Positions 4,793 through 45,835 of a stretch of 55,235 nt of DNA are shown here, piece after piece; position 1 is the stretch's first letter; the number at the start of each line of letters is the position of its first letter. The notes below the pieces were generated by a model. It saw nothing but the letters and a program-made list of their open reading frames with translations, searched no databases and was not told where the DNA came from. Location: the NCBI GenBank assembly GCA_032718475.1, contig JAUCBJ010006961.1, forward strand, positions 1-55,235, read 5' to 3'. Position numbers and translations under genes: made by a program. This stretch comes from Nemertoderma westbladi. Taxonomy: Eukaryota; Animalia; Xenacoelomorpha.

Positions 4793-4942
4793 CTAGAGTA
4801 TATCTACAGTTATATAAAGTAACTTGTAAATGGACCAGTAGACTTGTAAATAATCTTGTACTCAAGTACGCAGTCTCATGGAGTGAATAAGCATATTGGA
4901 CAGCCCATGACTTTCTTGAGGCGCACCTCAAAGGACGCTGGC

Positions 4943-15263: not shown

Positions 15264-16061
15264 TAAACATGTTATCCCGTGCAATATCAGGAATAATAAA
15301 TATCTTTAAGGCATTGGGAAGTGAATCAGTTAGTCAATGATACAAGAAGAACTAATACTTCACTAGCGGACAGGTTTAGCGATTTGTTCCCTATATCTAA
15401 TAAATGGAACCAGACAGTTCAGAGGCTAGGCTGATATTATACATTGGTCGTTGACATTCCCACAAATAAATTCGGAAATTATCAGGATGTTGGACCGATA
15501 TTAACTATAAAGTACATGACCGCCACATATTATTATTATATTTGATTCAAATTACTTTATTGCATTAATTAATAATTAATTTAATTAAATAATTAATTAT
15601 TCATTATTGTACTATATAGCTCAATAATATAAACTCAAAATCTTTAACAATAATCGTAGATCAACCAAACACAACATTAACTACAACAATACAATACTAA
15701 TTTACATATTATTATAATAATTACTCAGTCTAATTTGATATAATCAATCGTCTCTCACCACTCACACATAACTAAATGTAACAATTTGCTTTAGAGTCTA
15801 GAGCCTTATACGACAAGTACTGTATAAGATATTATACGATAATATAAGACTAGGCCAAGAACTAGCTCAAGTCTAGCCCTAGTCATGTGTGTGTGCGTGA
15901 GTGTACCTGGCACTACTGGACTATTAAAATTAAAATTAAATTAAAATTAAATTTAAATTAAAATTTATTTCATTATTTTATTTAATCAATAAACATTTAA
16001 GTTAATAAATTTTATGAATACTGAGCTTTTATCATATTGCATATATGACTAGGCGAGGAAT

Positions 16062-17519: not shown

Positions 17520-19127
17520 ATGGGACAAACTAAGGATATGGCTTGAAGGATATACAAAGGAGTTAATAGATTATCTACGAAATGGTTTTTTGCATGGTTT
17601 TAGATTACATTACCAAGGTCCATTAGTTACAACCATATCTTCCAACTCACTGTCCGCCAAGACTCATGCAATGGTAGTGGATCAGAAACTGACAAAAGAA
17701 ATCGAAGCAGGGCGAATGGCTGGGCCATTCAATGAGCCTCCATTCAAAGTGTATCATATAAACCCTATAGGTGTGCGACCGAAGAAAGATCCAAATCAGT
17801 ATCGAATGATACATGATCTGTCAGCCCCCTACAATGAACTGTCAGTAAATTATAACATACCACGGGACAATGCATCAGTGACTTATTATAAAGTTGAAGA
17901 TGCAATTGCTATTATACGTAAATTAGAACGCGGTTGCTTTATGGCCAAAACGGACATTGCATCAGCATTTCGGTTAATACCAATTTCACCTTTAGATTAT
18001 TATTTAATGTGTTCAGAATGGAAAGGTAAATATTATTATGATAAATGTTTGGAAATGGGGGCCAGTTCCAGCTGCTCAATTTTCGAGAAGTTATCTACAG
18101 CCATGCAATGGATTGGAAAAAATAAATTATTAATTCCAAACTTAGTCCACATTTTGGATGATTTTTTCATGGCTGCCAATGATCGAAACACGTGTTTAGG
18201 ACAACTGCAGGCATTTCAAAAAATGTGCCATGATGTAGGTATTCGTTATCTGCCGAAAAAACTATTGGTCCATTTCAGGTAATTACCTTTTTGGGTATCG
18301 AGCTAGATTCAATGAATCAAGTCGCCAGACTTCCTATTGAGAAGTTACAAAAATCGTTTTCGGTCATTAATAACATTAAATCTAAACGGTGGGTCACAAA
18401 ACGTGATCTGTTGTCAGCGATAGGATTATTAAACTTTGCCTGTCAAGTGATTATTCCGGGCCGAGCCTTTTTACGGAGGCTGATTTATCTGTCTACCACT
18501 GTTACTCGTTTACACCATCGAGTCCGACTAAAGAAGTGGGCGAGAGCCGATCTCAATGCCTGGGAAATGTTCTTGAAACACTATAACGGTTGTACAATGT
18601 TTATTGATGACTTCTGGACATCCAATGATACAATTGAACTCTTTTCAGATGCTGCACAAACTAAGGGTTATGGGGCTATTTTCGGGTCACAATGGTTTTA
18701 TGGTGAATGGCCTGATCGTTGGAAGGAGTGCAGCAATATTTCTCTTCTTGAATTGTACCCAATTATGTTGATGCTCGAGATTTGGGGCCCGCTGCTGATA
18801 GGAAAAAGGGTCATTTTCCGTACAGATAATGAAGGACTGGTATCAATTTTAAATAACAAATCCTCCAAGGACCACTATATTATGATATTGGTGCGCAAAA
18901 TTGTAATAGCATCAATGCATCATAACCTTTTATTCCGAGCCAACCATATACCCGGAAAGCTTAACTCTAAATGCGATCTTCTTTCACGTCTACAGGTAGA
19001 ATCATTTATGGCAATTTCCCCGAACGCCAACAAGGAACCAACGCTAATCCCTCGGGATCTACTGCCCAACGATTACTTCTTCGATACACACAACTCATTG
19101 ACGCGGCGTGGGAGGAGACTACTTTGA
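17350..19127 (+). pseudogene. Ngaro ORF2, reverse transcriptase/RNase H with a single 1-nt frameshift
   Basis: YRMIHDLS, MAKTDIASAFR, HILDDF, FSDAA, LLELYPI, FRTDN, HIPGKLN..CDLLSR. Adding one C near 18244 restores GIPLSAEKTIGPFQVITFLGIELDS. Confidence 0.9.
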
Positions 19128-19960
19128 TTTCATATGCAAACATATGGAGCAAGCTGCGATCGTTTCTATCGCAAACAATGAATACACAACTCACACTGCC
19201 TTTAGATGTAACAATGCTAGGGTGTTTTATTGCATATTTGGACTCGATCAACCTTAGTAGGGCTACAATTTTAAATTATATGTCGGCTATAGCCATGCCT
19301 CATCGATTACTTAATATGACAGACCCTACCAAATCTTTTCTTATTTCTAGAGCTTTGAATGGTTTAGGTAAATCCAATATATCGGTAGATTCGAGACTTC
19401 CTATCACAAAACCAATTTTATCACGAATGTTGCATGTGTGCAGTTCTGTTTATCCTGATCCTTATACTAACTCGTTACTTAGATCTGTATTTATATTAGC
19501 TTTTTATGGTTTTTTACGAGTAGGTGAATTCGCACCAAAAAAAGGTACTGACGAAGTGGTTATAAATAGAACAGATCTACAATACGACGGACCTAGACTT
19601 ATTATTACTATTAGAAAGTACAAACATCAAAAACACCCTTATGTACCAGCTAAATTAGAAATAACAAACAACCCTGAGCATAACCCAATCGGTATTATTC
19701 AGGATTATCTTGAAAAACGTCCAGACAAAGAGGGGCCGTTATTTATATGGCGGTCAGGTGACATTGTTTATAGGAACGAGTTTTTGTCAATGTTAACCAA
19801 AGTCCTTGGTTTTCTAAATTTATCTACAAAGCTTTATAAGTCTCACAGTTTTAGAATCGGCGCTGCCACAGAAGCGGCCCGGGAAGGATTATCTGATATT
19901 CAGATTAGAGAAAAGGGTCGATGGTCCTCTAATGCCTTCTTGAAATATATTCGTCACTAA
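18971..19960 (+). CDS. Ngaro ORF3, tyrosine recombinase
   Basis: GFLRVGEF (R), SHSFRIGAAT (HxxR) and GRWSSNAFLKYIR (catalytic Y); the true start is uncertain. Confidence 0.93.
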   Translation: MRSSFTSTGRIIYGNFPERQQGTNANPSGSTAQRLLLRYTQLIDAAWEETTLISYANIWSKLRSFLSQTMNTQLTLPLDVTMLGCFIAYLDSINLSRATILNYMSAIAMPHRLLNMTDPTKSFLISRALNGLGKSNISVDSRLPITKPILSRMLHVCSSVYPDPYTNSLLRSVFILAFYGFLRVGEFAPKKGTDEVVINRTDLQYDGPRLIITIRKYKHQKHPYVPAKLEITNNPEHNPIGIIQDYLEKRPDKEGPLFIWRSGDIVYRNEFLSMLTKVLGFLNLSTKLYKSHSFRIGAATEAAREGLSDIQIREKGRWSSNAFLKYIRH

Positions 19961-21495: not shown

Positions 21496-22749
21496 CTATA
21501 CCCTGATTTTCATCTCAACGCCATACAGGCTTTCGTTATGCGAGTAGGCAACCCAAGTAGGAGCTCCTCTCCAAATTGATGTCTCGTGAAGCAAAATAGG
21601 ACCAGTGAGGTGACTACAAAAATGAGGGCTTTTTAGGCCCTGTCTGTCGACGTAGCGTTCATTGCGACCATACCACCAGCCGACTGCATTGTTGTCCGGG
21701 TTGTCGGCATTGGCACTTAATCTACTGGTGGTGCATGTCCATCTAGAACCGGTATTATCTCGATCATAGGTAGTAAATTGACGATCAGAACCAGATATTA
21801 CACCCCTTGTAAGATCATCACCTGCTGTTCCATGAAATCCAGCAACATTCATAGTGTAGTTGGTCAGCGCCGAGCCAACACTGAAACTATCATATATAGC
21901 ATACGCATTGGTTGACTGATGATGGTACTTCTGTTTGCCATTTGCATCAGTTTGTTGGTTGAGATAAGGTATCCCACTTCCCCATTCCCCTGGGGGTTCC
22001 GTTAGAGTTTGATTACTAAACAAATACGCAATTGATACTCCTTGATTATAATAAAAAGGCGCAATCGGAACTCCAGAATACCAAAAATCTATTTTGAGTT
22101 GTACACCACCTTTACTGAGTCGAGAAATGGTTTCAAGGCCAAGCCAGAAGTTGCCGGAAGTGTCTCCAAAACCCTTAACATACTCATCCCAACCTTTCTC
22201 CCATATATTAGACGGTGTTTCATCAACATATTCCCCATCTTTCACAACCAAATGCGAACTCATGATTACCAACCAAGGGCCATAATCGTGCAACTCTCCA
22301 CTAACGGCTTGAAGTTTAATATAATCTTCTTCGCTCGAATCTTGCGATGTAGGGGGAATATTCATGAATGAATAATGGTCTTTATTCACTCTAAGCTTGT
22401 CAACATTACAGCGTATTTTACCATTGAGACCATAAAACTTATTCTCGACAATTTCATACCGCAAATCATATTCTTCTACACTTAGTGGTTCACGTTGTTT
22501 TGTGAGATTCTTTAAATTATCGCAGGGGTGTAGAATTTCGTCTAGCATTGTGTTATCTAACCCCCCTGCAACCTGTTTATATCTATCTATTGCCTCCGTA
22601 AGCAATGCTCTTTCTAATTCTTTTACTGCGTTATTTACTCTCGTAGTCGCCAGTTGTCTTCCAATGCAATAATATATATTGCAGAGGAGAAGGAGAAGCT
22701 TCATATTATCCATATTCATGTTTTTATTTGGAAAGTTATATAGTTGCAT
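21496..22749 (-). CDS. Secreted fibrinogen-related domain (FReD) protein
   Basis: Signal-like MKLLLLLCNIYYCIG; FReD motifs GPWLVI, WDEYVKGFG...NFWLGLETISRL, YAIYDSFSV, GTAGDDL, FTTYDRDN, GWWY and VEMKIR. Probable splice acceptor TTTCAG at 22766-22761; the start may be a downstream Met. Confidence 0.9.
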   Translation of the reverse strand: MQLYNFPNKNMNMDNMKLLLLLCNIYYCIGRQLATTRVNNAVKELERALLTEAIDRYKQVAGGLDNTMLDEILHPCDNLKNLTKQREPLSVEEYDLRYEIVENKFYGLNGKIRCNVDKLRVNKDHYSFMNIPPTSQDSSEEDYIKLQAVSGELHDYGPWLVIMSSHLVVKDGEYVDETPSNIWEKGWDEYVKGFGDTSGNFWLGLETISRLSKGGVQLKIDFWYSGVPIAPFYYNQGVSIAYLFSNQTLTEPPGEWGSGIPYLNQQTDANGKQKYHHQSTNAYAIYDSFSVGSALTNYTMNVAGFHGTAGDDLTRGVISGSDRQFTTYDRDNTGSRWTCTTSRLSANADNPDNNAVGWWYGRNERYVDRQGLKSPHFCSHLTGPILLHETSIWRGAPTWVAYSHNESLYGVEMKIRV

Positions 22750-23035: not shown

Positions 23036-23052
23036 ATTAAAGATGGACGAAG

Positions 23053-24248
23053 TGTAAAAGCTTTTGCGGAATTAGCTGGTTATTTTTCCCGCAAAGTACT
23101 CTGTAGTTGGTTTAATGGACATAAAAAGCCGTTTCCTTACTGTACTGGTGTTTTAGTGGACATAAAAAGCCATTTCTTCTGTATGTGTACTTTAGCGGAC
23201 ATAACTAGCAATTCTATGTCGGAATACGCTAAATCCTCTTGAAACAGTGTAGTTACTATGACGACAGCTAACAGCTGATCTGTACACGTGGAGCTTTTCC
23301 TTTGTTCTCTGTTCTTTCTTTGTTTGGTCAACCAATCAGAGCGTTTTTTGACTCTGTGTTGGAGATTGTATACAGAAACTCGTGCAGTTGAGTCAGTATG
23401 TGTATTTTGTCCACAGCCAGAAGACCGGCTTTGGAATCTCTGTGTTTTCAGGCTTTAGCCCAACCTTAGTAGGCTTAATCACAGAAACGTATATCTGTTA
23501 TCATAACAATTCATACCTTAACAAATCAATCATAACATAACTCACCTAATCATATTGTCAACTACAAACACCGCATTTTTACTGCTATTTACTGTCGGTC
23601 ATTAATTATATCGGTTGATGGAATATTATTATATTTGGATAATATCGATCAATAATCAGAAACCCCAATCTTCTTGATATACTGAAGGTTAGAGAGACCG
23701 GTTACATATAACAATTGCGACTTACATTAAAGTGGTTTTGGAGTGAATCTAATGCTATTTCATAGGCACTACATGAGTCGGTTGTTGTGCTCTTTATATG
23801 TGACTAAAATTAGTGAAGGTCGGCAGATCGGTGTGCAGCATTGTGCAGTAGTGTGTATGATTGTGACTGATAACAAAGCATCTCCTAAAGAATGCGCTAT
23901 ATACGTGAATCCATAGCCATCCCGTTGTGTCTAGTTTAAGTCATAACTCTGTTTACATATTTAGAGTGCCACGTCCTAAAGGAACTGTTAATATTTCCCG
24001 AAAGTGAATAATATTTGTCAGAGATTATATATTACGATCAGTCGAATAATACAGTAGGCCTACACCGCAATCAGGTTAGGCTTCCGAATCCAGTCTCCTG
24101 GGAATATCCAGCGGGTGAATGGTCGCGCATAGACTGGCTTTGGCTAATGTAGTGTATCAAATACTCGTCATAGGCTAAAGTCGATTTACAATCTAGAAGA
24201 CATCCAAATTTGGCAGGTTAAACTGCTAAAGGTCTGAAAGCGCGAACA
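23053..24248 (+). repeat. 5' LTR of outer BEL element (1196 bp)
   Basis: Direct repeat of 44642-45835, with roughly 16 differences counted by eye. Confidence 0.96.
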
Positions 24249-24596
24249 ATAACAGATATTGATTTCAGATTGCAGTGTAGGCAATAAATGCAGTTTAATA
24301 TTGTTCTGGTAAGAACAGTAACAGTTATTGCTTCTGTATTGCAGTAGGCAATAAAGCTGAAGTACCGGTCAACCGGTACCCAGTAGGCCTAACTACCTAA
24401 CTACCCGAACCGGTACTTACAGCAGTACAGGTACAGCAGTATTATTCGATTGTGATATTGTATACTGGTAGGCCTTAATATTTAATCAGGGACGGCCGCC
24501 CTGGTTTTTTATTGAGATTTTACTTGTTTCTGTCAGGTTTTATTTATTTGTAGGTTAATATTGAGCAGAAGACGTGTAAGCCTGCCCAGATTGTAC

Positions 24597-25168
24597 AGAT
24601 AATTTGTAGGCTGGACTGTTGTCTGACTGTTGTTAAGACTGAAGGGATTGCGGTGTGTGTAGAGTGTATGTCCGATAAATTACTAGTTAGGAAAGTAGGG
24701 GCTTCCAGTGCTGTGAGGTAAACCCCCTCGAAAGAATAAGTCGTACTACTCGGTTAGAACGCATACTAACTAACCATTTCGGAGTCTGCATATACTGTAG
24801 TTGTTTAGGCTTGATAGTAGTGTGCCAGCGTTTGGTCTGTATTTTGTATGTGTAGTCTGTACGGGTAGCGTAATATTTCTTATTTAGATAATTTGTAGGC
24901 TGGATTGTTGCCTAGCTGTTGTTAGGTCTGAAGAGATTGCGGTGTATGTGGAGTGTATGTCCGATAAAGTACCAGTTGGGAACGTAGGGGCTTCCAGTGC
25001 TGTGAGGTAAACCCCCTCGAAAGAATAAGTCGTACTACTCGGTTAGAACGCATACTAACTAACCATTTCGGAGTCTGCATATACCGTAGTTTGTTTAGGC
25101 TTGATAGTAGTTTGTCAGCATTTGGTCTGTATTTTATTTGAGTAGTCTGTATGCGTAGCGTAATATTT
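24597..25168. repeat. 290-bp tandem duplication in the BEL 5' leader
   Basis: AGATAATTTGTAGGCTGGA...GTAGCGTAATATTT starts at 24597 and again at 24887. Confidence 0.9.
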
Positions 25169-26504
25169 ATTATTCAGAGTTTATGCAATTATTCGCAACA
25201 TTCATATTCCCAAGTTTATTCCTACAGTAATTGTGCTTGTTATATATACCGTTATAGTTAAACTAACCCCGGTACTACATCAGGGCTGCTTGGCGTAGGT
25301 AAAGACTGGAGATTTTATGCTTTGGTCACTCCGGCAGATACCGTGGTTCTTTTAGCTGTTCAAGTATTTTAACTACTGATTATTTGTTGTATAAGTACTT
25401 GTACCTAATGTAGGGTTTAGTGTACAGTGCTTTCCGAAGGTAATTAGTGTGTAGGCAGTATATTTGTGTTGTAAAGTGGTTAATAGGCACGTTGGTTTTG
25501 GTAGACCGCGGTAATTAACTTCTAGGTAGGAACACTCCGTGATACATAATGTAGTACTTATAGCGATACGGCTATAAGTCGTCAGACGGTGGTATTTTCC
25601 TATCTGGACAACGCAATATATTTACTACTGCTTGTTATTTTCAAATACCGTACCATCCTGTTCGTTGTAATAACCAGATATTCTAACCCTTTGTTAGGCT
25701 GGTTTGTAGACTTCTTGTAAAATTACCCTAAAAATTCGTACGTGTAATTTTTGTGTTTATTTAGAGATTGTAATCTCACCCCAAATTGTATGTAATTTGT
25801 AGTATTAAGTAACTTAGGTAAATTAGAATTATTTGTTTTAGTGTCCAACAAGTAGCACTTCACTGAGAGCGTACAGCTTCTGTGCAGTGACTCCTTCCCA
25901 GAAATAATAACATTTATTTCAAATATCGACAAAACCCATTATAGGGGTATATATATTATAAATCAACTCAAACCGATTTATAAAATAGTAGGCCTGTCAT
26001 ACAACAATTAGGTCTTAATATCAGTTGGACTACTGCTTAAATAACGGCAATCAAGTAAAGTAAAGTAACCAAGTAACCCCTAAAATTCAGAAATTCAATT
26101 ATTCTAAAATAATTGACATACCGGTATTTACGATAGGCTTATTATTTTTATTTCTATAAATTTAGGCTGAAATTATACCGGTATTCTGTAATTAATTCTA
26201 GTCCATAATTATACTTATATATATTATAAGTGTAAGCTGTATACCGGTATTCACAATAGGCTTATTATATATTGCTATATATTTGCGCTGAAATTACATA
26301 CCGGTATTCTGTGACAATACTAGTCTGTAATAATACTTATATATATACTATAAGCATACCGGTATTCTAATATATTATATATATATATCACGTTACACTG
26401 AGTAACAGTATCGGTAATTAATTACTAGGCTAACAGTTGATACTGAATTACTAGACTTGCTTTAACTGTAATGTAGCAGTAGGCATTCAACTGTACAAAC
26501 AAAC

Positions 26505-27949
26505 ATGTTTGACACAAAGCAAAACCTGTCAGACAGTCTCTTAGATACAACCATCTGTGACCCAGATAGGAGTGTGGAATGTGTGAGACCGAAGTTCAAC
26601 TCACCTCCTACTGTAAGAAAGATCATCCCTCCAGTAGTAATATCAGATCCTAGGCTAGTCCAACACCGTAGGTCTATCATAGGCACTCGAGCTCAGGTCA
26701 AGCGGGACCAAGAAGCAGCGGAACAGCAGCAACACTCGAGCCGAAAACTTATTTCTCAGCGGCCCGACAGCTCCAGTAGTGAGGATACTGTAGAGCTGAC
26801 ACCCGAGCACGGAGCAAAGATGGCAGATGCGGTTTATTCGGATCCCCTTCTCATCCTTCCTGCAGCCGTACTCACTAGGGTATTGATTGCGGTGGAGGAA
26901 CACCAGATTGATTGGGCGAGAAGTAAGCGATCGACTAAGGATAGTTATGCGGGATACACAAGGGAAGAACTGAAGTCTATTGTCGAGTCGCAATGGAACT
27001 TCCCCAGACCCGGACTCCCGTTTGACTTATCGGAAGCTGCCTGGGAAGACATACACAGGATGGGAGTGACAAAAGAAACCAGCGATCCAGCTGTGTGGAA
27101 GAGGTCAGCAGCCGGATACGTACAGGGATTCTTCAGCTCTATGGAGCGATTAAAGGAACAACTGTTTCGACAACCCCAAGGACCTCAAGAGCAGGGAGAG
27201 CTGCTTTATCAAGTTAGAGAAAGAATTCTATGAATCAGACTAATCTTATCGGCCTTTGAGGAGGCAGGACACGTCGTTGCAAGTTGCCGTAAAGACTTGG
27301 TTTCAGCGGGTGAGTCTCCAAGTTCAAGGAACTGCCCAGTGGAAATCTCAGCCCTCAACCCATGGAGAATCAACAGATGCTACATTTTCACAAGTGGAAA
27401 GTGAAGCGACGGCGGAGAAACCTTATGAGAGGGACGCTATTGACATCTATCTGTCAGATTATCAACGATTTGTAGGTGACGAAGAGTTGAGGAGACGGCC
27501 ATCTGGACTTAGCCCTAATAGTGAAGGAGCCAAGCTTGTGTTGGACGCAATTGATGCGGATATGATAGCTGCGAACCAAGCTAAATTTGATGAACGCCTC
27601 CGCATCGCTAGAGTCCAAGAAGAACAAGTAAAGAAAAAATGTATAGAAGACAGAAAGACAGCGGCAGTGGCAGCAGCAGTGGCAGAGGCAGAAGCGGAAA
27701 GAAAAGCGGCAGCAGCAGCGGCAGAGGCAGAAGCGGAAAGAAAGGCGGTAGAAGTGGAAAGAAAGGCGGTAGAAGTGGAAAGAAAAGCGGCAGCGGCAGC
27801 GGCAGAGGCAGAAGCGGAAAGAAAAGCGGCAGTGGCAGCGGCAGAAGCAGAACGGAGAGCGTCTGAAGAGATCGCCCAACTAGAATTGGAAAATATTCAA
27901 GAAAATCAAGACTGCATAAATAAACAGTTAACAGCTAGTAATATGCAGA
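26505..27949 (+). pseudogene. Outer BEL gag, N-terminal part (frameshift near 27230; interrupted by nested element)
   Basis: ORFs 26505-27233 and 27256-27954, the latter with an AEAEAERKAAA coiled-coil repeat. Removing 27950-35000 and one TSD joins it in frame to ORF 35005-35748. Confidence 0.75.
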
Positions 27950-28478
27950 TGTGACGGGATCTACGGATCCCGGTTTATCCGTTGGGTTTTCTATCTACGC
28001 GTCCCCGCCGTGTGTGAAAGGTAAAAGAGTTCTGGTGTTCGGTTATATGTATAAGGTATAATATAGTTGATATATATAGTATAGTATGACACGGTTACCG
28101 GTAGATAAGTATGATGGCGGTAGCGGACGGTGATAGAAGTCACCGTTCCACCCTACTGAGCTAACTGAGTAAACTGACTAACTGATTGCATCGACCGGTA
28201 ATATATATTGCACGGTTTGGCCTTGTTACAGTACCTAGTCGATGCTGTCCCCCCATTGGCTAATATCCCTGTTGGCACCCTTTGGAGTGTTTCCCTTCAC
28301 TCCCTGTGTTCTCTCTCGGTTAGGGGTTTGGCCCCTGACCCCTATTGTGTTTCTCCTTCCCACTTTATTGGGGTGACACGGGGTTGATATTGGTAATCAA
28401 CCTCGTGCTCCCAATATTGCTTTACGGTTTAATGGCTCACTTTATGGGGTTTGGTGAGGCGGAATTGATTCGCTAACA
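27950..28478 (-). repeat. 3' LTR of nested element
   Basis: Direct repeat of 34472-35000 (about 5 differences seen); adjacent to the PPT. Confidence 0.96.
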
Positions 28479-28949
28479 CTCCCCCCCATGCTATCTTCCC
28501 GGTGAGAAGATAGCATCAACCTCTAAGTGCGCTTCAATTCCGCTGGAACTCGATCTATTATCGGGTGTGGGGTGGGATTATTTTCTTGGAGTCGGTTTTC
28601 CAGGCCGCTCCCTATGGGTATGATGTCACTACCCTCTGGCGTCTCGTGTCGGGCCGATCGTGCGCTTCTCTCACACAATTTTTGTTTCCCCAACACTCTC
28701 ACCACTCTAACTCCGCTCTCTGACTCAACTCGCTCTTACCCTCTCCCCACACCTGAATCGCACTCTTCTCTCTCGCCAACAGTTCCTTTCACTATCTCCT
28801 CTCTACTCCCTGCCACTCTTTAAGGCCCTGACCTCTAATGCTACCCCTGTGCTATCATACTATCTACCTACTACTCACTTGCTAACTATCTAACTCTCTT
28901 ACTAACTCTAACTATCTCTCTAAGCCTACTAACTTTAACTCTAACTCTT

Positions 28950-29400
28950 CTACTACGTGGCGCTTAGGGTGCCCACAACCCTCTGCTACTACCTCCATCT
29001 ACGTGGCGCTTGCAGTGCCCACAACCACTCTACTACTAACTCTAACTAAAACCATCTATCTACGTGGCGCTTGTGGTGCCCACAACCACTCTACTATCTA
29101 CCCTCTACTACTCTACTACCTGGCACCCTATGTGCCCTCTCTACTACTCTACACTCTGGCACCCTATGTGCCCTCTCTACTACCTCTAACACTCTAACTG
29201 TACTACCTGGCACCCTATGTGCCCTCTCTACTACTCTACTCTATCTACATCTCCACCTCAACTAATACCTCTATCTACGTGGCGCTTGCGGTGCCCACAA
29301 CCACTCTCTGCTACTACTTTCTACGTGGCGCTTCCGGTGCCCACAACCTCTCTACCACCGCTACTTTCTACGTGGCGCTTCCGGTGCCCACGACCCCCCT
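28950..29400. repeat. Interspersed short repeats in the 3' UTR of the nested element
   Basis: Six copies of CTACGTGGCGCTTnnnGTGCCCACAACC and three of CTGGCACCCTATGTGCCCTCTCTACTAC, separated by CTA-rich linkers. Confidence 0.88.
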
Positions 29401-29843
29401 ACTACTACTCGTGGCATGACAATATGCCACACTCCCTTACCCCGCCGCCTTCTAACTTAACTCCCGGTACTACGTACCCTCTACTCCCGTGGTATGTTTA
29501 TACCACACTCCCTATACTCCGCCGCCTTCTAACTTTTCTAACTACTTCTTACTTCTACTAACTATTATTTTAATTATTTAATTATTTATTAATATTTATT
29601 TAAATTAAATAATTAATTTTTGTGGGAAGGGCGTCTCGCCCTCATTCCCACCCCCCTCAGTCCAAAACCTTGGACGACTAAACTCTAAGGTGCCCCTTCT
29701 TCCAGTAGGCACACTCCCACTGCCCTTCTATACGTCCTCTTACTCTTCGCCACACCCTCTTCGCCAATTCCACCTGACCAGGAATTGGTTCTCCCGCTTT
29801 CACCACCCTAAGGTTGGGTCTCTCCACCGTCTTCTTAACTAGC

Positions 29844-32800
29844 TCATCTCCTGGCATCAAAATGCCACCTCTCTCCTTGTTGTCTCCCGCCGGCAGAATG
29901 AATAGAAAGTGAAAGAACAGGCAGAACAGAAGGTACAACAGCAGTCCTACCCCTCTCCATCCTGCCCCCCCTCTCGACCTCCCCCCCCGTCGGCACGCCT
30001 CTCAACCGGACCGGCGTCTCCTCCGGACACTCCCCCGGACACCCCTCCGGACTATTGTCCTCCTGACACTTCACCGGACACTCCTCCGGAGTGTAGTCCC
30101 CCGGACACCCCGCCGTCCGCTCCCCTCCATCCCCACACCGACACCCGCTGGGAAGTCTATTATCCTCCACCCTCTCTCTCATTGTTACTTTCCTGTCTGG
30201 CTCTACTATCTCCTCCGGCTTCTTATCTTCGTCCTCTGTGTCTACGGTGCCTGGTAACATGCACCCATGGTAACATGTCGTTACTGAACGACCGCCCTCT
30301 CCTGATATCTTCACTGGTACTACCCCGAGTAGTACTTTTCTCTTCTTCTCTTCTGTTGTGCTTGTAGCTGCTGTTTCTCTACACTCTCCGGATCAGTGTC
30401 CTTCTACCACACATCGATGACATAGTCCGTTTGCGTCTGTGTAGGCTATACGATCTTGTTTGGGCAACGCTTGCCAGTGCTTACAACTCCTGGTCTTATG
30501 TGTTCCGTCTCGATGTAATTGACATTCGAATCCTGGATTATAGCGTTCCCTGTATAGTCCCTCACGTATCGCGCCTAGGTTTATATGTACCGATTTAGTG
30601 TTTTGGTTGTCTGTATTCGGCCTACTGGGTACATTGGGATTATGTTTATTTATGTTGTTATTTTCTTTCTGTCCCCGCCACGGTGTGGCCCTACTACCAG
30701 CTAACTGTAGACTAGCAGTCCCCTGTGTGGCCGCATGTGGTAGTGACTGTCCCACTCCCGAGAATGGGTCTGTCGGATTATGTTCGGGTTTAGGCCAGTT
30801 GTATTCGATCTTTGGCGCCTTCCCCAAACTATCCTCACTATAGACTGGGTCTGTTATTAGTTCGGCTTCGTAGTTCAAGAAGCTCGACATTTCTTCTAAA
30901 CCCGGTTCCGCACCCTTCTTTTCCCGTGTGGAGAAAGCGATTTTCCTCCACTTCCTTCGTAACCAGATCGGCAGTGCCTGCGCTATTGTGGTGATGTTGT
31001 TAGACGCGTTGAGTTCGTATGGTGCGTCTAGCATCTTTAACACGATTAACGCCTTCTCGACCTTGTTCGCAAAGGTCCTTATGCTAACGGGATTATCCTG
31101 TAGGCCACCCGATGTTATGCCTCTCAGGGTTTGCCAGATGATCTTGGCCGGGTGCCCGTATTCCCTGTCCAATGCCCGCCATGCTGCCGTGAAGCCGCCC
31201 TCGATGCCCTGGTATTGCCTCACGATGTCGTATGCTGGGCCTCCTGTATATACTTGCAGATATTTTAGGCACTCCGCCTGCGTCAAGTTCTTTGTTAGTA
31301 TTTCGTTACTATACATGCGCCGAAACTGTAGATATTCTTCCGGCCTACTCCCATCGAATTTAAACGGTTCCACAGGTGGTAACTCGATCCTAGTTTTTAA
31401 TGCATCGATTAATGTGGCCATTCCCATCGCTTGCGCTTCTAATGGGTTCGATGGATGTTGTATAGTTTCTCCTGTTGGGTACGGTCCGTCCATCCTATTT
31501 GTTTTTGACTTTGCTTGTTGCGTCGGATATATCATTGGGGGTAACGGCCCCCTCCATATTTCCGTGTCGCACGATCTGCTCTCGTCCAAGGGGTTCGATG
31601 TTCTCGCTCCTATTGGGGTATATTGTTGATATTGTGATGGGGGAATGTCACCCTGTCCCCCCCCCCCACCGGTATGTTTAGTACTGGGGTTGATGTTAAT
31701 ATATTGGGGCCCATGCACCTATCCGCAATAATCCCCCCTCCCCTGGGTATATGTAATGTCCTTGTGTATTATAGTCATGCTGCTGTACCGATATAGGCCT
31801 ACCTACCTCTCGCCTACCTACCGGTATGTACTCCGCGACTTCCGGGTTTAATCCCGTCGTTCGCGCTACCCTATCGCCTACTCTATCTCTCCCAGCATGG
31901 CCTATAATAGTATGTGCAGTAAGGCCTACAGTATGTCCTGCAGTCTGCATGTGCCCTTCCGAACCGAAGTTTATTCTTCGCGAATCTCGAATCTCCCCGC
32001 GACTACCGCACTCTCGATCGGCAGCTATATCCCGTCGGGAAGCCTCCCTTCGATCACCTATCCTGCTCTCGTCTTCGTATCGGTACATCCTGTACCCCTC
32101 TCTTGGCGTGCGGTGCGTTTCTCCAGGGCGACGGCAATCTCCCGAAGTTCGACCCCACTGACTCCCTACCTCCATCTCTACTATCGACGGCTCGCTATCC
32201 GTCCTCGCTCTCCTATCGTTCGTGGCGACACTTCTTCTAATATCTTCTCTTCTTCTCTTTTCGACCTCTCGGTTAAACTCTACTAATCTTCTTCTATCTT
32301 CAACCCCTCTATTAAACTCTACTAATCTTCTCTCTTCTGACTGGGCTCGACGTTCCGTCGCCCGCCCTCTCGCGACGTCAACTTGTCTCTCTCTGCTCGA
32401 TCGCACGCCGCTGGGGATACTCGCAATCCCCCTATTACTCTCCATCGCCGGGTGTTGCGGTTTACCTAATTCGGCCCGCGCATTATCCGCCGACGCCTGT
32501 GGGACACTCCCTGCCCCCCCTCTCTCGCTACTAATCCCTCGCGGTGGGGTGCCCGTAGCCCCTCCCCACCCGCTACTTCTAACTTCACTATCTCTTACTA
32601 CACTTCTGCGTCCCTCTTGTCGGACACTCTCTACCCCCTTTCTCTCGCCACTAATCTTCTGTGGTGGGGCGCCCGTAGCCCCCCCCCCCCCACCCGCCAC
32701 TTCTAACTTCACTACCTCTTACTACACTTCTACACCCCTCTTGTGGGGCATTCTCTGCCCCCCTCTCTCGCCGCTAATCTCATGTGGTGGGGCACCCATA

Positions 32801-34336: not shown

Positions 34337-34471
34337 CTTCGTCTTTGGTGGCTGGCACCCACAGTCTGTCAGGGCAGTTGGTTGGATCTAGTTCTATCAC
34401 TGTCAGACTGTTAGGGCAGCTGCTAGGATTCTATCACTGTCAGGGCAGCTGGGTGGATCTAATTCTATCAC

Positions 34472-35000
34472 TGTGACGGGATCTACGGATCCCGGTTTAT
34501 CCATTGGGTTTTCTATCTACGCTTCCCCGCCGTGTGTGAAAGGTAAAAGAGTTCTGGTGTTCGGTTATATGTATAAGGTATAATATAGTTGATATATATA
34601 GTATAGTATGACACGGTTACCAGTAGATAAGTATGATGGCGGTAGCGGACGGTGATAGAAGTCACCGTTCCACCCTACTGAGCTAACTGAGTAAACTGAC
34701 TAACTGATTGCATCGACCGGTAATATATATTGCACGGTTTGGCCTTGTTACAGTACCTAGTCGATGCTGTCCCCCCATTGGCTAATATCCCTGTTGACAC
34801 CCTTTGGAGTGTTTCCCTTCACTCCCTGTGTTCTCTCTCGGTTAGGGGTTTGGCCCCTGACCCCTATTGTGTTTCTCCTTCCCACTTTATTGGGGTGACA
34901 CGAGGTTGATATTGGTAATCAACCTCGTGCTCCCAATATTGCTTTACGGTTTAATGGCTCACTTTATGGGGTTTGGTGAGGCGGAATTGATTCGCTAACA
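34472..35000 (-). repeat. 5' LTR of nested element
   Basis: TG...CA ends; on the minus strand a TATA-like run near 34725 is followed by repeated TCAGT(T) initiator-like motifs. Confidence 0.96.
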
Positions 35001-35004
35001 GCAG

Positions 35005-37097
35005 ATGATGAATCGATCTACTCCCAAAAGACAGGGATATACATCATCTGATGAAGGCGATACCACCGATCCTGAAGGCGGAGGAAATAGATCTCGTCTA
35101 AGCAGACGTAGAAGAATGTCCCACCGTCAGAAATTGCCTGATTTGCCCCCAGCTGTTAGAAGACAACTAACTAACACAGGTTTAGGTAGTACAGAACCCA
35201 CAGACCAAGTAATTAAAATAGAAAGACTCCCTACTATAGTAGATGAGCCTGAAATAATTAGGCCTGTTCTTGAAATCACCCCTTCGGTGATAGAGACACC
35301 TGTGCTCCCAGAACCTACCTCTAAATTCCCTTTGCACAGTACTAAACTTCCTGTGCCCCACAAAACAACCCCTGAGACAGTTCCTGTCCTGGACTCCGAG
35401 CGAAATATCAATGATTTGTCGCCCGTTGTCTCTCGTCTACCCGCTACTACGTTGGCGGCTCCCGCTTCGGCGGTCGAGTGGGTGGAGGAGAGACGGCGGG
35501 GGATGGATCTCCTGCTCGGGCAGATGCAGGAGACTGTTAAGCAGTTCAAGGGCACAGTAAGGGAAAGTAGGTTAGAGTTGCAAGAAGTGCAGCAAAGTAT
35601 CGCGTTAGAATGCGATAAATTAGTAAATACACAAAAGGGTATACCACCACCCCCTGTAACAATGTGTCAACCTGTTAGGTCTGAAGTATTTCATGCGCAA
35701 GGTGTGGAGCCTACATCTATACTGCTATCGAAGTGGAAACTCCTATAGTAAACCCTATTAAGGGTAATTATAAACCTGTTGACAATGATATTCCATATAG
35801 ACTTGATAATAATCCGAGAAATTTATATACCGATAACTCGATATTAAATAACACGATGGCCCAAGAAAGTTTTACGCGTCAAATGGCTAGAACCGAAGCC
35901 CGTCAAGCGGTAAAGGTGGGAGAGATCGTCAAGTTCAATGGAGATGAGATGAAACGGTTACCTTTTAATGAATATTACAAAGATAACATACAGAACTCTG
36001 TGCTATCTAACGGAGAGAAACTTAGATTCCTCATCGAGTGCTTGGAAGGATCTCCCAAGTTAATGGCGTTAAAGTTTATTGGACATCCAGATGGATTAAG
36101 ACAAGTTTGGGATACCCTAAACATCAGGTATGGTAATAGGAATAACATAGCTAGGTATTTGTATGCAAAATTGGTAGCGCCCCGAAAATTCATTAGCAGT
36201 GGGATTATAGAGTTTTCCGATGAAATTCAGGAGATCTGTAGACAATTAGATTGGCTAGGTAAGTCTCATGAATATCAGAGTTCTATGGTTATTGGAGCCG
36301 TGGCCTCTACTTTACCGAAGGGTGGAGTAGGTACACGCTGGGATAAGAAAGTGTTATATATGATGGAACAGCAACGACGAGACCCTACCATGGCTGATCT
36401 CATGTCATTCTTAGATGGAGAAGTGAAATTACAGCTCCTAAGGCAGTCCAGAGAGAAGACACCGGAAAACAAGGTAAGTGAGAAACCCTTTTCTAGGAGA
36501 AAGGTAACACCAGTGTGTTATACCGACGACGGCGAAAGCCAGGCTTCTCAAGGAGAGGACAGCGGGAAAGACACTGAAAGATCTTATTATGTCAACAAAA
36601 CGCCTAAAGACGTAAGTAAATTCAGGTCTCGAACCAATGACAGGAGAGAACAGGTAAGAAAAACCCCTCCTACGTCTCCTAAGAGAATTCAGGTAAGAAA
36701 GCCCGAAGAAAGAACGAGTGTGCACAACGTTACTCAAAATAAGGTAAGTAACATCAAACCGAAATGTGCGCTGTGTGACGGGCCCCACCGTTTGAATGTG
36801 TGTGATGAATTCCTAAAGAAATCATTAACGGATAGACGGGAAGTCATGTGGGATAAGCGGTTGTGTTATAATTGCCTCAGACAAGGACACCAACGGCGAA
36901 CCTGTTACTCCGACGCAAGGTGTGCAAAGTGCGGTGCGAAACATCATATATTGTTGCACACTGAATTCGAGCGAAACAGCCCGAGTCAGGTAAGTGAGTC
37001 CGAACTACATGTCCAATTCAGTGATGTGAATGACACTGACCAAAGTTCTGAGATGGAAGACGATGGAGTTCCGACGAAGACGAATCCTGTTACATGA
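35005..37097 (+). pseudogene. Outer BEL gag, C-terminal part
   Basis: IVKFNGD, KLRFLIECLEG, WDTLNIRYG and three BEL zinc knuckles CALCDGPHRLNVC, CYNCLRQGHQRRTC and CAKCGAKHHILLH; frame change near 35740. Confidence 0.9.
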
Positions 37098-40000
37098 TAA
37101 ATACCGCAGTGTATCGAGCACTTACGTATGAAAAAGACACCGACAGCGAGCTCACCCTAACTACTTCTGACAGACAACCATCTTGGAAAGCACCAACTTC
37201 CAATGTAGGAATCCGAGAATTTCCTGTAGTACAGTTAAGGGTCCACGGACCTACAAGGAGTTATATAGTGAACGCCCTCCTTGACTCCGGTAGTACAGGA
37301 ACATTCATCGACAAAGAACTAGCCGAAGACATATTTGCTGGACAACCCAAGTTCCAAACTAAGTTAAACATGTCAGGAATTATGCAGGTTTGGAAATCTA
37401 CAGTGATAGCTGATTATTATGTAGGTGCGTTGTCCACCCCCCAGGATGAACTAGGAGAACACAGCATAAGGTCAGTAAAAATGGTGGCGATAAAGAACTT
37501 CGCTACCAGCCAAGTGGAACCTTATAACTGGGATGAGGACGATTTCACCCAGCAGCTTGATATACCTAGATTCAACACCGATTACCCTGGAGTGCAAATA
37601 CTCATCGGTCAAAATGCGCATGAGGCGCTCGAGACATTGGAGAAACGGCCTGCTCAACCGCAACCACTACAAGCCTATGCGGGAAGAACTAGAGTGGGTT
37701 GGTACTTTACTGGCCCTTCCCGTAGAACTCTCATGGAAAGATTACCGAAAGATCAGGTATATCAAGTAAGAGAATGGGAAGTTGAGAGCAGTGAGTTAGA
37801 CGATCCAACTGAGGGAACTCCATACTCCTCAGATAACGACGATATCCACCAACTCTTCGACGAGGAGAATACAATTGATCTCCTTACGGAAAACGAGACT
37901 TGGCAAAACCAAGTAAACCTATGTCAGCTCATTCGTCCATCGGAACGAGACGACTATAACGACGAACTGAATGACGTCATTGAACGTTATAATGCCAAAA
38001 CTCGGGATGAACACGCCGTACGATTCTTTACTCAAGAGGCTGTAGAGCCCAATTCCTATGATAAGGCCCTATCGGTAGAAGAAGAAAGAGCCAAGCAGAT
38101 CCAAGAGACAACTACACGTTTTCTTAAAGATCAAGGTAGATATGAAATCGGTCTACCTTTCCGAAAGCGAGAACCAAAGTTCATCAACAATAGACCCTTG
38201 GCGGAGAAAAGAATTGCTCAACTACATCGACGCCTTACGGCAAATTCTTCAGCTAAAGAAATGTATCAAACGCAGTTGAAGAAATTTATTAGCAAGGAAT
38301 ATGCGGAGCGAGTACCGGAAGAAACACCTATAACTGAGAGAACGTATTATTTAACTCACCATTACGTTCCCAAACCCCGGTAAACCCCATGAGGTACGAG
38401 TAGTGTTTGACGGCTCCGCCCTCTACATGGGCCAATCCCTTAATTCCGAATAGTTACCCGGACCCAACTTACTCCAATCCTTGTTGGGAATACTCTTAAG
38501 ATTACGACAATTTTCAGTCGCTTTCGCCTCAGATATAGAAGGCATGTTCTTACAAGTCAAGGCACTGGATAGGGATCGAGATAGCCTACGATTTCTGTGG
38601 TGGCCTGAAGGAGACCTCAACCAGAAACCGGTGGAGTACTGGATGACCATCCAGGCTTTTGGGATAATCTCAAGCCCTTCAAACGCCTGTTCAGTGGTGC
38701 GCACCACTGCGGATAACAACCGGGAAGCCTTCTCTAAAGAGGTGATCGACAACATCAAACGTGATATATACATGGACGACAATCTAAAGTCCCTTCCATC
38801 AGTCGAAGAAGCCATTGATGTCGCTAAAGGAACGGTAGAGTGCTTAAAAAGAGGTGCATTTCGATTAACTAAATTCACCAGCAACTCCCGTGAGTTTCTG
38901 GAGTCGATCCCAGTAGAAGATCGAGGAGCGAAAGACCTAGATTTAATCAAGGATGATCTTCCAGAAACCAAGACACTTGGTTTGAAATGGGACACAGAGA
39001 GAGATATCCTGTTTTTCCAGCTAAAACAGCGAGATAATCCAGTGCGGACTAAACGGATTTGTTTAAGTATCCTGAGCACTTATTTCGATCCATTGGGATT
39101 TATTAGCCCAGTTATATTGATTGCTCGGAGTTTAGTACAACAAATGTGGCTTGAAAACCACTCATGGGACGATCCACTTAAGGGAGAATTATTAAAGAAG
39201 TGGATGAAATGGGAAGATTCTCTACCAGCCATCGAGAACTTTATAATTTCCCGTTCATATTTTGGTCATGTTCTCCCTACGTATTCCTATCAACTCCATG
39301 TGTTTGGAGACGCCAGCGATATGGGAATAGGTATAGTAGCCTACCTAAGAGTGGAAACTCCGGATGGAATCAAAGTCGCCTTGGTTACCTCTAAGGCATT
39401 GATAAACAACAAGTTGAAAGTTCCTCGAGCGGAGTTAAAGGCGGCTCTATACGCTACAGCCATCGGCCGGAATGTAACCGAACAGATCTTCGTTTCCAAC
39501 AGAGTAGCCATTATACTTAGTCGCACGAAGATGGATCAATGGAGACATTGCCCCGGAACGATTAACCCAGCAGACATCGCCTCCAGGGGAGCAACTCCAC
39601 AAGAACTGGTAGATACTCCAGACTGGTTAGGTGGACCCGACTTCCTCTACAAAGAAGAAGAAGAATGGCCTCCTCATCTTACTACGGCAGAGATTAGACA
39701 GGCCAAGGGAGCAGAGAAAGTCAAACCTAAAACTCGGGCGAGTAAATCGAAGTTATTTAAACCTATGGTAGATCTGTCTGTACTACATACTTCCGGAGAC
39801 GACGTTTTGGATCAGAAACCCACAGCCATAAATAAGTCTGTTGTGGAAATCCGTGAGAAGGATTGGAAATCTGGAATACCAGACGTCTCGCAAGGACTCT
39901 CACCTCTCCTGCAGAGAGCGATACATCACTACAGTTCCTGGAATCGGCTCTGTAAGGCCGTTACATATTTAAAACGATGTTTTCATCATCACTACTCCGG

Positions 40001-41567
40001 GACGAAGATCAATAGTGATACCGCTCCACTGACATCGGTGCAGGTCCATGTTGTTAAAGATCTTCCCAAATATAAGATATCCAACAGGTTTCTGAAGGAG
40101 AAGATCAGTTATCAGGAGCATGAAGAAACCAACAAGCAGATGCTGAGACTCCTGCAATGCTATGATGATTCCTATAAGTATTTCCTGTTTTTGAGAAATC
40201 CACAGAGGCGCTTAAGGGATCGTTTCTCTAGCACAATGATAGATGGGTTGATACGTGTTGGAGGAAGATTAACGAATGCTCCATTATCCTTTGACACTAA
40301 GTTTCCCATACTCATTAGAAATCTTGAAATACAAGTCAAGATGATTGTAGATGTTCACAGCAAACTTTATCATGCTGGTAGAGAACGAGTTCTTAGCGAA
40401 ATTCGAACTCGCTATTATTTTTATAAACCCCGTAGAGCTCTGAACCAAGTTCTTAGGAACTGCATACCCTGTAGGAAAGCATTCAGTAGGCCTTTAACAC
40501 AGCGAGAGGCAGAATTACCTAAGGAACGAGTAAGCTTCTATGAACCACCCTTTACTAATACCGGTGTAGATTTATTTGGTCCTATTGAAGTGTATCGTGC
40601 TAGGACTATAGTCAAGAGATGGTGTGTCATCTTTGTTTGTATGACTTGTAGAGCTATCCATCTCGATATGGTGAACGATTTGTCTACCAACATCTTCCTA
40701 TTAAGCTTACGACGACAGATCGCTCGCTTTGGAACTAGTAACACGATGAGATCTGATAAGGGAACGAACTTCATTGGTGCCAACAATGAAATCAAAGCTT
40801 ACGTCAAAGATTGGAACCAAGGACAGGTGGATGATCAGCTTAGGGTAACAGCGTCTAGCTGGACCTTCAACGCCGCCGACGCCCCTTGGTGGGGAGGAAG
40901 TTGGGAGAGATTGATTAGAAGCGTGAAGACCGCATTTCACTTTATAGTGCCGTGCCGCGCGTATCTCACCGACGAACTTTTGCGGAAGTTAATGGAGGAA
41001 ATCGCCGCCTATCTCAACGAGAGACTGCTTATGCCAGTCTCATCGAGTCCCGATTCCCTGGAAGCGCTAACACCCGCGCACTTCCTACTGAAGAAACCTG
41101 TAGCCATGCTCCCACAATCGGAAATCACAGACGGAGACGAATACTGCCGGCAAACTTGGCAACTTATGCAGTTGTTATCCCGTCGTTTCGCTGACCATTT
41201 CGAAAAACATTATCTGCCCACGCTACAACTTCGAACTAAGTGGTTTGCGCAGCAAGAAAACGTCAGCGCTGGAGACATGGTCCTTATTGTGGATTCAGAT
41301 CTTCCATGTAAGCGGTGGCAGACAGGTCGTATCATCGAGACTCACATCTCGGATGACGGTTTGGTGCGATCGGTAGAACTCGTCGTCATGCAACGTAACT
41401 TCAAGAAACCGGGAATTGTCTTTGAGACACAGCAGCTCAATCGCCCAGTTGGTCGTTTATGTTTACTGGAAAGAGACAGAGAACTCTCCGGAAACTATGG
41501 AAGACAAGATACTCTTCCCACGACCACCTCCCTAATCCAACAAACATCTAGGGACTCCCCAGCTTAG
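37094..41567 (+). pseudogene. Outer BEL pol: aspartic protease, RT, RNase H, integrase (disrupted)
   Basis: ALLDSGSTGTFI; YYLTHHYV..RVVFD; SDIEGMFLQV; YMDDNL; LHVFGDAS; PRAELKAA; HAG..CIPC; GVDLFGP; SDKGTNF; WWGGSWERLIRSVK. Frameshift near 38380, stop at 38451, and the WTDS part of RNase H appears deleted. Confidence 0.94.
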
Positions 41568-42117
41568 TAGCGTATGGAGTGGGTGTGTGACCATATTATT
41601 TTATATTCTTATCATTTTATATTTATGTATGTATTATTATGTAATTTTATTATAATCGTTTTCTTTAATTTTATTTAGTAGAATGTTATTTTAGCGATTA
41701 TTTAGTAGATTAGTGCAATATATATTCGCGTTTATTACTTAATTACTTATATATTATATATTTAGTGCGACGGCGAGAAATAATTCTTTTTCTCTTTCCT
41801 TACTGTCCGTATTACATTACAAATACGTAACTACAGTAAGAGGAAATATCCGTACTTATTAAAGTACAATAAAGCTCCTACTATATTCAAGTATTATTGG
41901 TAAAGTAGAGTATTAGGAATGCAAAATTCAGATCCTCGTGCCTCGGCTAAACCAAGCTCTGGGTAGACCTTGGAAACGACTTGCCTCTTCTCACTGACAT
42001 TGCTTCGTGCGATATTGCTCTCATACCGTATATTAAATAATACATATAGTAGCGTGATGTCCCTTTAACAGTAGCGTATAACGCAAAATAAATCTGTTAA
42101 ACCCTTTGACCATCTGT

Positions 42118-42382
42118 AATTCTAGTCGATTAAGATATCGCGGCACCCACCGATATACTTGAAAGACAAAATTCTAGAATCAGTGGTTAACGTCCCCAGA
42201 CATGTTCTGGAATAAACAGGTGCCCATCTTAAATATTAATTATTAATATTTATAAACTCTGTCAAATTTCAGATCCTTTAAAATTCTAGTCAATTAAGAT
42301 ATCGTAGCACTTACCGATACTCTTAAAAGGACAAATTTCCTAGAATCAAGGATCCCAGTCCCCAGACGTGCTCTGGAATAAA
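42118..42382. repeat. Diverged tandem duplication (period about 163 bp) in the BEL 3' region
   Basis: AATTCTAGTC(G/A)ATTAAGATATCG...GTCCCCAGAC...CTGGAATAAA occurs twice. Confidence 0.8.
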
Positions 42383-44563: not shown

Positions 44564-44641
44564 CTGTTTAGAGTATTTTTATATTTTAGAAACTGTGATT
44601 TTTTATATTTTATAGAATTAAATCCCATTTTCTGGGAGCGG

Positions 44642-45835
44642 TGTAAAACTTTTGCGGAATTAGCTGGTTATTTTTCCCGCAAAGTACTCTGTAGTTGGTT
44701 TAACGGACATAAAAAGCCGTTTCCTTACTGTACTGGTGTTTTAGTGGACATAAAAAGCCATTTCTTCTGTATGTGTACTTTAGCGGACATAACTAGCAAT
44801 TCTATGTCGCAATACGCTAAATCCTCTTGAAACAGTGTAGTTACTATGACGACAGCTAACAGCTGATCTGTATACGTGGAGCTTTTCCTTTGTTCTCTGT
44901 TCTTTCTTTGTTCGGTCGACCAATCAGAACGTTTTTTGACTCTGTGTTGGAGATTGTATACAGAAACTCGTGCAGTTGAGTCAGTATGTGTATTTTGTCC
45001 ACAGCCAGAAGACCGGCTTTGGAATCTCTGTGTTTTCAGGCTTTAGCCCAACATTAGTAGACTTAATCACAGAAACGTATATCTGTTATCATAACAATTC
45101 ATACCTTAACAAATCAATCATAACATAACTCACCTAATCATATTGTCAACTACAAACACCGCATTTTTACTGCTATTTACTGTCGGTCATTAATTATATC
45201 GGTTGATGGAATATTATTATATTTGGATAATATCGATCAATAATCAGAAACCCCAATCTTCTTGATATACTGAAGGTTAGAGAGACCGGTTACATATAAC
45301 AATTGCGACTTACATTAAAGTGGTTTTGGAGTGAATCTAATGCTATTTCATAGGCACTACATGAGTCGGTTGTTGTGCTCTTTATATGTGACTAAAATTA
45401 GTGAAGGTCGGCAGATCGGTGTGCAGCATTGTGCAGTAGTTGTATGATTGTGACTGATAACAAAGCATCTCCTAAAGAATGCGCTATATACATGAATCCA
45501 TAGCCATCCCGTTGTGTCTAGTTTAAGTCATAACTCTGTTTACATATTTAGAGCACCACGTCCTAAAGGAACTGTTAATATTTCCCGAAAGTGAATAATA
45601 TTTGTCAGAGATTATATATTACGATCAGTCGAATAATACAGTAGGCCTACACCGCAATCAGGTTAGGCTTCCGAATCCAGTCTCCCGGGTATATCCAGCG
45701 GGTGAATGGTCGCGCATAGACTGGCTTCGGCTAATGTAGTGTATCAAATACTCGTCATAGGCTAAAGTCGATTTACAATCTAGAAGACATCCAAATTTGG
45801 CAGGTTAAACTGCTAAAGGTCTGAAAGCGCGAACA
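44642..45835 (+). repeat. 3' LTR of outer BEL element (1194 bp)
   Basis: Direct repeat of 23053-24248, followed by the TSD CGAAG. Confidence 0.96.

Follow-up and report, generated by a model that had tools for sequence, protein, structure and literature searches.

The retrotransposon Tf1 pairs its first 11 bases with a site that follows the 5' LTR, and its RNA is cleaved by RNase H between bases 11 and 12, according to the available part of PMC7175516. Self-priming has been described for the Tf1/sushi elements (available parts of PMC4600332 and PMC5341516) and predicted for the Tcn1 chromoviruses and the TAR-lineage Copia elements Houba and Osr-1, with the rule that at least 10 nt are complementary to the LTR and begin 0 to 5 nt after it (available part of PMC6317226). 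The Belpaoviridae are listed by the ICTV as primed by host tRNA at an 18-nt site that is complementary to tRNA-Arg or tRNA-Gly; the same profile calls their replication poorly understood (PMC8742986). A tRNA-Tyr site is given for Achilles, an example of the genus Semotivirus (PMC4580426, available part). Primer terms do not occur in the BEL/Pao surveys PMC3118150 and PMC554778, and no self-priming BEL element is named in the accessible portions of PMC6934838, PMC3601003, PMC5443660, PMC7472051, and PMC8220671. None was found in the literature searched, partly available as text and exclusive of Repbase Reports, subscription journals, and supplements, so that a prior mention is possible.

The window analyzed here, a 55,235-nucleotide stretch of Nemertoderma westbladi DNA, contains two nested elements that can be compared with these systems. 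The outer element resembles Tf1 and Tf2 of Schizosaccharomyces pombe, Tj1, and the Tf1/sushi elements, as far as the available texts describe them, in having no tRNA site and an 11-nt match to its own LTR after the 5' LTR. The first five letters of the Tf1 site, as printed in the available part of PMC11042837, are the same as those of the outer site at positions 24249-24253, which may be due to chance or to a shared cleavage preference. The Tf1/sushi elements, however, belong to Ty3/Gypsy, whereas both window elements are BEL/Pao by Pfam. Two further differences from Tf1 are the outer loop of 747 nt and an intron-split partner in most relatives, which is unreported in the available Tf1 texts. 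For Tcn1 and TAR-lineage Copia, plant Gypsy and Copia lineages in the accessible source, the evidence is of the same type; the outer element would be picked up by their rule of at least 10 nt beginning 0 to 5 nt after the LTR, whereas such a contiguous rule would miss the inner element, with 9 nt, and the spliced relatives. The tRNA-primed Belpaoviridae share with the window elements the TG...CA LTRs, a 5-bp duplication, a purine tract, and the order gag followed by protease, RT, RNase H, and integrase, but they carry a tRNA site, and the window elements do not. The comparison supports a mechanism that would work like Tf1 self-priming in elements outside the Tf1 group. With self-priming proven in one Gypsy group and predicted in a single lineage of Copia, its occurrence in BEL/Pao would extend it to all three LTR retrotransposon families.

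Two nested BEL/Pao elements

The outer element occupies positions 23053-45835 of the plus strand and is interrupted by the inner one. Its 5' LTR (23053..24248, 1196 nt) and 3' LTR (44642..45835) both have TG...CA ends and differ by 14 mismatches in 1194 aligned bases (98.8% identical). A 5-bp target duplication is located at 23048-23052 and 45836-45840, and a polypurine tract (44634..44641) is flush with the 3' LTR. The gag frame (35685..37097) contains DUF1759 and two CCHC knuckles, with more open frames upstream of it, before and after the inner insertion. It is followed by a frame with a protease-like DSG motif (37052..38383), where the reading frame is broken near 38.4 kb, and by pol (38454..41567) with an RT containing YMDD at residue 106, an RNase H with an in-frame deletion, and an integrase that was confirmed by fold matches. 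The plus-strand Pfam domains are DUF1759, Peptidase_A17, Integrase_H2C2, and DUF5641, all BEL/Pao families, and no Gypsy-type pol that would point to Tf1/sushi descent was found in this element. A search with outer pol gave 925 homologues with a top identity of 36%, the named ones being animal proteins with the identical BEL domain set. Judged by its proteins, the outer element is BEL/Pao by descent, with the Belpaoviridae traits of a BEL-type gag and pol and of RT-RNase H ahead of the integrase.

About 29 residues of the RNase H were deleted in frame near 39.5 kb, and the motif missing here was kept in 54 of 55 measured homologues. Considering this deletion together with the frame break near 38.4 kb, the outer copy is judged to be defective. 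About 3 kb separate the end of outer pol from the 3' LTR (41567-44641), including a 151-residue open frame at 43659-44114 with no Pfam match. A direct repeat of about 290 nt is located in the outer leader at 24597-25178. Upstream of the element, the regions 4920-6482, 16053-19960, and 21496-22749 of the window comprise two more RT-bearing regions and a frame for a fibrinogen C-terminal domain, which lies on the minus strand, its end some 300 nt away from the outer 5' LTR.

The inner element (27950-35000, minus strand, about 7 kb) has a 5' LTR of 529 nt at 34472..35000, paired with a 3' LTR at 27950..28478 with 5 mismatches, and a target duplication at 27945-27949 and 35001-35005. Paired LTRs, a target duplication, and a polypurine tract are present in both elements. 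The inner gag frame (30393..31718, minus strand) also contains DUF1759 and shares 24% identity with its outer counterpart across 171 residues, a divergence by which the inner element is assigned to a different family. No pol domain was found by Pfam among the 4 inner frames scanned.

The position after the 5' LTR and its complement in the LTR

Directly after the outer 5' LTR and flush with it, the 11 nt at 24249..24259 (plus strand) occupy the primer-binding position but are not of the tRNA type. The first-pass annotation had read them as the exact reverse complement of 23491-23501, with pairing that halts at the LTR boundary and with no TGG-type site behind the LTR, and all of this was confirmed: the candidate self-primer at 23491..23501 (plus strand) is contiguous, lies 747 nt upstream of the LTR end, and is present in the 3' LTR, too; pairing extends over 11 nt at offset 0 compared to 6 nt at offset -1; and the first TGG follows 58 nt beyond the LTR. 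An 18-nt tRNA-type site as described by the ICTV was found behind neither LTR, the first TGG being at +58 in the outer and at +110 in the inner element. The estimate of 3e-4 given earlier for a chance match was 2- to 6-fold too low when compared to shuffles and anchors. A match of at least 11 nt was reached by 35 of 20,000 dinucleotide shuffles of the LTR (1.75e-3) and by 8 of 13,247 interior anchors (6e-4), and by 1 of 150 anchors when offsets of 0 to 5 were allowed. With a chance of about 1 in 600, the outer match is weak alone, particularly in a wide scan.

The motif scan revealed an initiator-like TCAGT as the putative start site (23393..23397, plus strand) and a CCAAT at 23332 (plus strand) in the outer 5' LTR. 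The best candidate for a poly(A) signal is ATTAAA at 23726..23731 (plus strand), downstream of the candidate primer; AATAAA does not occur in the outer LTR. Rfam gave 0 matches at E values up to 1 in the region 23050-24600. Of 42 matches to the 11-mer in five partial non-host assemblies, 30 were inspected and 0 of these were located in a tRNA gene, which is a weak test. A related contig in sequencing run X1 aligns through 24259 and diverges afterwards, a weak observation from one contig, and two low-depth contigs of the same run depart from the window sequence after 24255. Run X1 was available as contigs only, with a share of 0.10, and 23422-23508 was uncovered, so that the comparison is limited to the side of the site; GT-AG ends were absent from four joints in these contigs. 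A spliced partner for the outer element reached at best 10 nt, built from letters of the same 11-mer, with 2 of 60 controls as good, and was rejected, as was the opposite orientation for the outer or the inner element, which gave only 4 nt of pairing. At 23496-23508, the outer primer's 3' half forms a short palindrome with the bases that directly follow, which could compete with the long-range duplex.

The inner element shares this layout with different letters, a flush complement of 9 nt instead of 11 nt. Its primer-binding position (34463..34471, minus strand) is flush with the LTR and matches the candidate self-primer at 34652..34660 (minus strand), which is 180 nt from the LTR end, with 9 nt perfect and 10 of 11 positions paired. 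A second helix arm at 34669..34675 (minus strand) pairs with 34451-34457 over 7 bp. Including this second helix, the duplex has an energy of -36.7 kcal/mol, which 2 of 500 shuffles reached. A flush 9-nt complement occurred by chance in 34 of 20,000 shuffles and at 10 of 5,936 anchors, and TGG is absent for 110 nt past the LTR. That the perfect core comprises only 9 nt counts against the self-priming reading. The best spliced partner had 5 nt and was dismissed. The inner leader (34392-34471, minus strand) contains the 9-nt site in three copies (34463-34471, 34429-34437, and 34392-34400), 34 and 37 nt apart and each preceded by ACA, with a constant core and varying letters behind it.

Related elements and their own sites

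Relatives were retrieved with the outer pol aligned with 59 homologues as the query, and loci were picked by pol similarity and not by primer site. This gave 76 metagenome loci from the best 80 of 524 confirmed matches in part of the collection, 32 loci in genome bins, and 20 further stretches from those bins, or 128 loci in total. The contigs in bins titled as bacteria are presumably animal host DNA. BEL/Pao elements were present in 10 of 10 searched bins (G001-G010), with 1 to 15 matches each, and these bins had been chosen for holding one. No relatives were found in the viral contigs scanned.

The LTR end was fixed by an LTR pair in 26 of the 128 loci. Behind it, 20 loci had a TGG-like start and 6 did not; “TGG-type” is a label from the site letters and does not name a tRNA species. 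Thirteen of the 20 TGG-type loci were tested, 7 near-identical sisters being dropped, and pairing with the own LTR was at most 6 nt contiguous and at most 7 nt spliced in these 13. Contiguous matches at the LTR end did not exceed 5 nt in 5 of the 7 dropped sisters. All 6 loci without TGG paired over 11 to 15 nt with the own LTR. The partner was contiguous in L079 (11 nt, offset 4), ran across a GT-AG junction with 8 nt after the acceptor and 3 nt before the donor in L085, L165, L088, and L108, and also ran across a GT-AG junction, split into 6 and 9 nt, in L020. Controls reached this in 0 of 60 cases for L088 and in 0 to 3 of 150 for the others. Pairing over 11 nt in five of the six is of the length given for Tf1 in the available part of PMC7175516. 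Among the tested relatives with a pair-defined LTR end, the LTR complement and the TGG site were mutually exclusive. Four long-branch BEL-like elements (L170-L173), whose LTR-like repeats are separated by about 13 kb, were left out, their ends being unclear.

The sisters L085 and L165 share the aligned donor GTGAGT. The three letters before it are CAC in one sister and TAA in the other, and the letters at the matching places of the site are GTG and TTA, respectively. Two of three exon-1 letters differ together with the two matching site letters, which on the alignment are two compensatory changes in one sister pair. The junction search for L085 had named a weaker donor with the identical three letters, and the GTGAGT donor was taken from the sister alignment. 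Internal indels make the LTR introns of the two unequal in length, with both splice sites retained, and AATAAA directly follows the partner in both (L085:1000-1800 and L165:1000-1892).

A blind scan was done with 40 loci lacking a pair-defined LTR end and 200 rounds of shuffled controls. Junction 11-mers were found in 7 of the 40 (L006, L013, L024, L025, L062, L069, and L080), compared to a mean of 0.43 and a maximum of 2 loci in the controls; the remaining 33 had no strict match. With a looser acceptor rule, three more were identified post hoc by eye, L008 with 10 nt, L012 with 13 nt, and L021 with 11 nt, each with 0 of 100 controls. L003 also paired over 11 nt, as did 3 of 100 controls, and its LTRs are degenerate, so it was equivocal and remained uncounted. 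Many of the 29 remaining loci were truncated. Short TGG-like motifs also occur in two loci of the self-type side, L030 and L055, and no LTR-like end precedes them.

Every site was different in the 18 self-type cases, with a mean identity of 0.47; the first letters were GT in 12, AT in 4, and AG in 2, and all sites were located 0 to 4 nt from the LTR end. None of 306 cross pairs among them reached 9 nt; for the 10 cases defined by the scan, the own-pair score with which this compares follows from the way they were selected. Because the sites are so variable, one tRNA cannot match all 18. The loop measures 747 nt in the outer element compared to 44 to 220 nt in the 17 others. The covariation that had been proposed as a check was thereby borne out across families: the site letters differ by family, the own LTR changes alongside, and this is absent from TGG-type BEL elements. 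Beyond the first-pass annotation, the nested inner element shares the feature, and most relatives assemble the partner across an intron.

Trees were calculated with IQ-TREE, that of RT-RNase H with the quick setting, and for the label count only labeled rows were used, with roots at midpoints. The label “self-type” or “tRNA-type” changed once on the integrase tree (28 rows) and once on the RT-RNase H tree (29 rows), and 0 of 500 shuffles were as low. A single change also sufficed on the further IQ-TREE trees, including the careful integrase tree and the two-domain tree with 73 rows. In the careful integrase run, 12 relatives grouped with 99/97, and the outer element joined them at 87/88 on a long branch. 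The two-domain tree with 73 rows supported the clade of relatives with 98 and the outer join with 89; with the 28 labeled rows the outer join reached 97, and one alternative was rejected (p-AU 0.02). Placement of the outer element with a deep tRNA-type group was not rejected (p-AU 0.19), and FastTree with 110 integrase rows disagreed by placing it on the tRNA side. By these trees, the self-type relatives are one well-supported clade, and the outer element is probably, but not certainly, its deep sister, with support for the join of 81 to 97 across trees. L079 was located inside the spliced self-type clade, and the 20 best gag matches of the inner element among the retrieved loci were all on the self-complementary side of the integrase tree.

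Probable priming by the element's own RNA and other explanations

Priming by own RNA in any form, in cis or in trans, is likely, and with somewhat less confidence the analogy to Tf1 suggests that the outer and the inner element use the LTR-complementary stretch at the position of the tRNA site in this way. The earlier suggestion that this lineage may self-prime has gained support from the second element and from the comparative sequence data. RNA of the outer element would start upstream of 23491 and fold back, so that 23491-23501 would pair with 24249-24259. RNase H of the element would cut after 23501, leaving a 3'-OH, and RT would extend from the last LTR base over 24248-23502 into minus strong-stop DNA that would jump to the 3' LTR. 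With the ATTAAA at 23726 as the signal, the RNA would be polyadenylated downstream of the cut, which strand transfer requires. The partner is in one piece in both window elements and in L079; in most relatives, the LTR intron would be spliced out before the fold-back. As the outer copy could not supply the cut and the inner one shows no pol in the scanned frames, both would depend on an intact relative.

Folding of the outer RNA from 23491 or 23452 gave a duplex probability of 0.4-1.0, from 23486 a mixed result of 0.02-0.99, and from 23394 a probability of 0 with 0 of 11 pairs, where forcing the duplex costs 4.4 kcal/mol; these are rough predictions for spans of 800-1000 nt. Folding favors the outer duplex with starts at or after 23452 and not at 23394, and the start-type motifs of the scan lie 40-100 nt upstream of the partner. 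An internal primer is favored because the partner appears to follow an intron in the relatives. The inner cis duplex was predicted in 7 of 9 tested RNA spans. Beyond the core, the outer pairing had no significant extension (144 of 500 shuffles), compared to 2 of 500 for the inner element and 23 of 500 for L079. The loop of 747 nt, the missing duplex from 23394, the unfirm tree position, and the defective RNase H are points against self-priming of the outer element.

A primer of own sequence could alternatively act in trans: a short RNA transcribed separately from the LTR, and spliced in the majority of relatives, would anneal to the genomic RNA and be trimmed. This would account for an LTR intron that is kept through replication despite a spliced partner, would make closure of the 747-nt loop unnecessary, and would agree with the AATAAA right behind the partner in L085 and L165. 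Tf1, however, acts in cis (available part of PMC7175516), and a cis duplex was predicted in those inner spans and for outer RNA starting at 23491, which leaves a trans primer unlikely. In spliced relatives that prime in cis, the intron might survive if the 5' LTR alone were spliced; the other solution is the separate short RNA. The window elements would escape this problem because their partner is unspliced.

It is distinctly improbable that the outer element takes a tRNA half or another host RNA as its primer, or has a decayed site, with the 11-nt match due to chance and only the relatives self-priming. Half-tRNA priming is known in Copia lineages (available part of PMC6317226), the tree position is unsettled by FastTree and the p-AU of 0.19, and the first 6 nt of the outer site recur directly after the partner. 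Against this stand a match probability of 6e-4 to 1.75e-3, the 98.8% identity of the LTRs, by which little decay is expected, the labeled two-domain tree with the outer element joined to the self-type clade at 97 and p-AU 0.02 against one alternative, and, as a weak point from one contig, the run X1 contig that aligned up to 24259 and was different thereafter. A conserved RNA structure that serves packaging, dimer formation, or control of translation, with priming by something else, is very unlikely as well, for although the inner element (2 of 500 shuffles) and L079 (23 of 500) have longer pairing past the core that looks structural, 18 of 18 pairings sit 0 to 4 nt from the LTR end, where priming must happen, and pairing and TGG site exclude each other with no other primer site apparent.

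Returning to self-priming, a scenario that we put forward tentatively, at rather less than an even chance, is that a clade of BEL/Pao elements in marine animals abandoned tRNA priming, so that self-priming would have arisen a third time in LTR retroelements, and uses an internal primer, which in most members would be joined by the host spliceosome from two LTR exons. The outer element would be an early-branching form from before the intron, with the primer in one piece, and L079 within the spliced clade would have lost the intron again. The window contributes two unspliced forms, each with a cut point predicted to the base, one of which may have branched early, and the analysis adds a test with loci that were retrieved independently. 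If self-priming is true, these elements would be independent of the tRNA supply and probably of silencing by tRNA fragments at the primer site, and annotation tools seeking tRNA sites would miss them. A spliced primer would tie replication to host RNA processing, with survival of the LTR intron through copying as the puzzle.

A U5 stem-loop reportedly adjoins the self-priming site of Tf1-type elements. A hairpin of 7-8 bp is present in the last 55 nt of both window LTRs (z -1.5 and -1.2), and as a marker it did not discriminate, self-type ends being no stronger than tRNA-type ends. A search of solved structures by sequence with the RNase H alignment gave no useful match; the Peptidase_A17 region of the relative L136 has a predicted fold like RNase H1 (pLDDT 84.8, best E value of the fold search 1.5e-6). 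The base after the partner is a C in 13 of the 18 self-type elements, as part of a triplet C-purine-pyrimidine in 10 of the 18, and this may be a preferred cut site.
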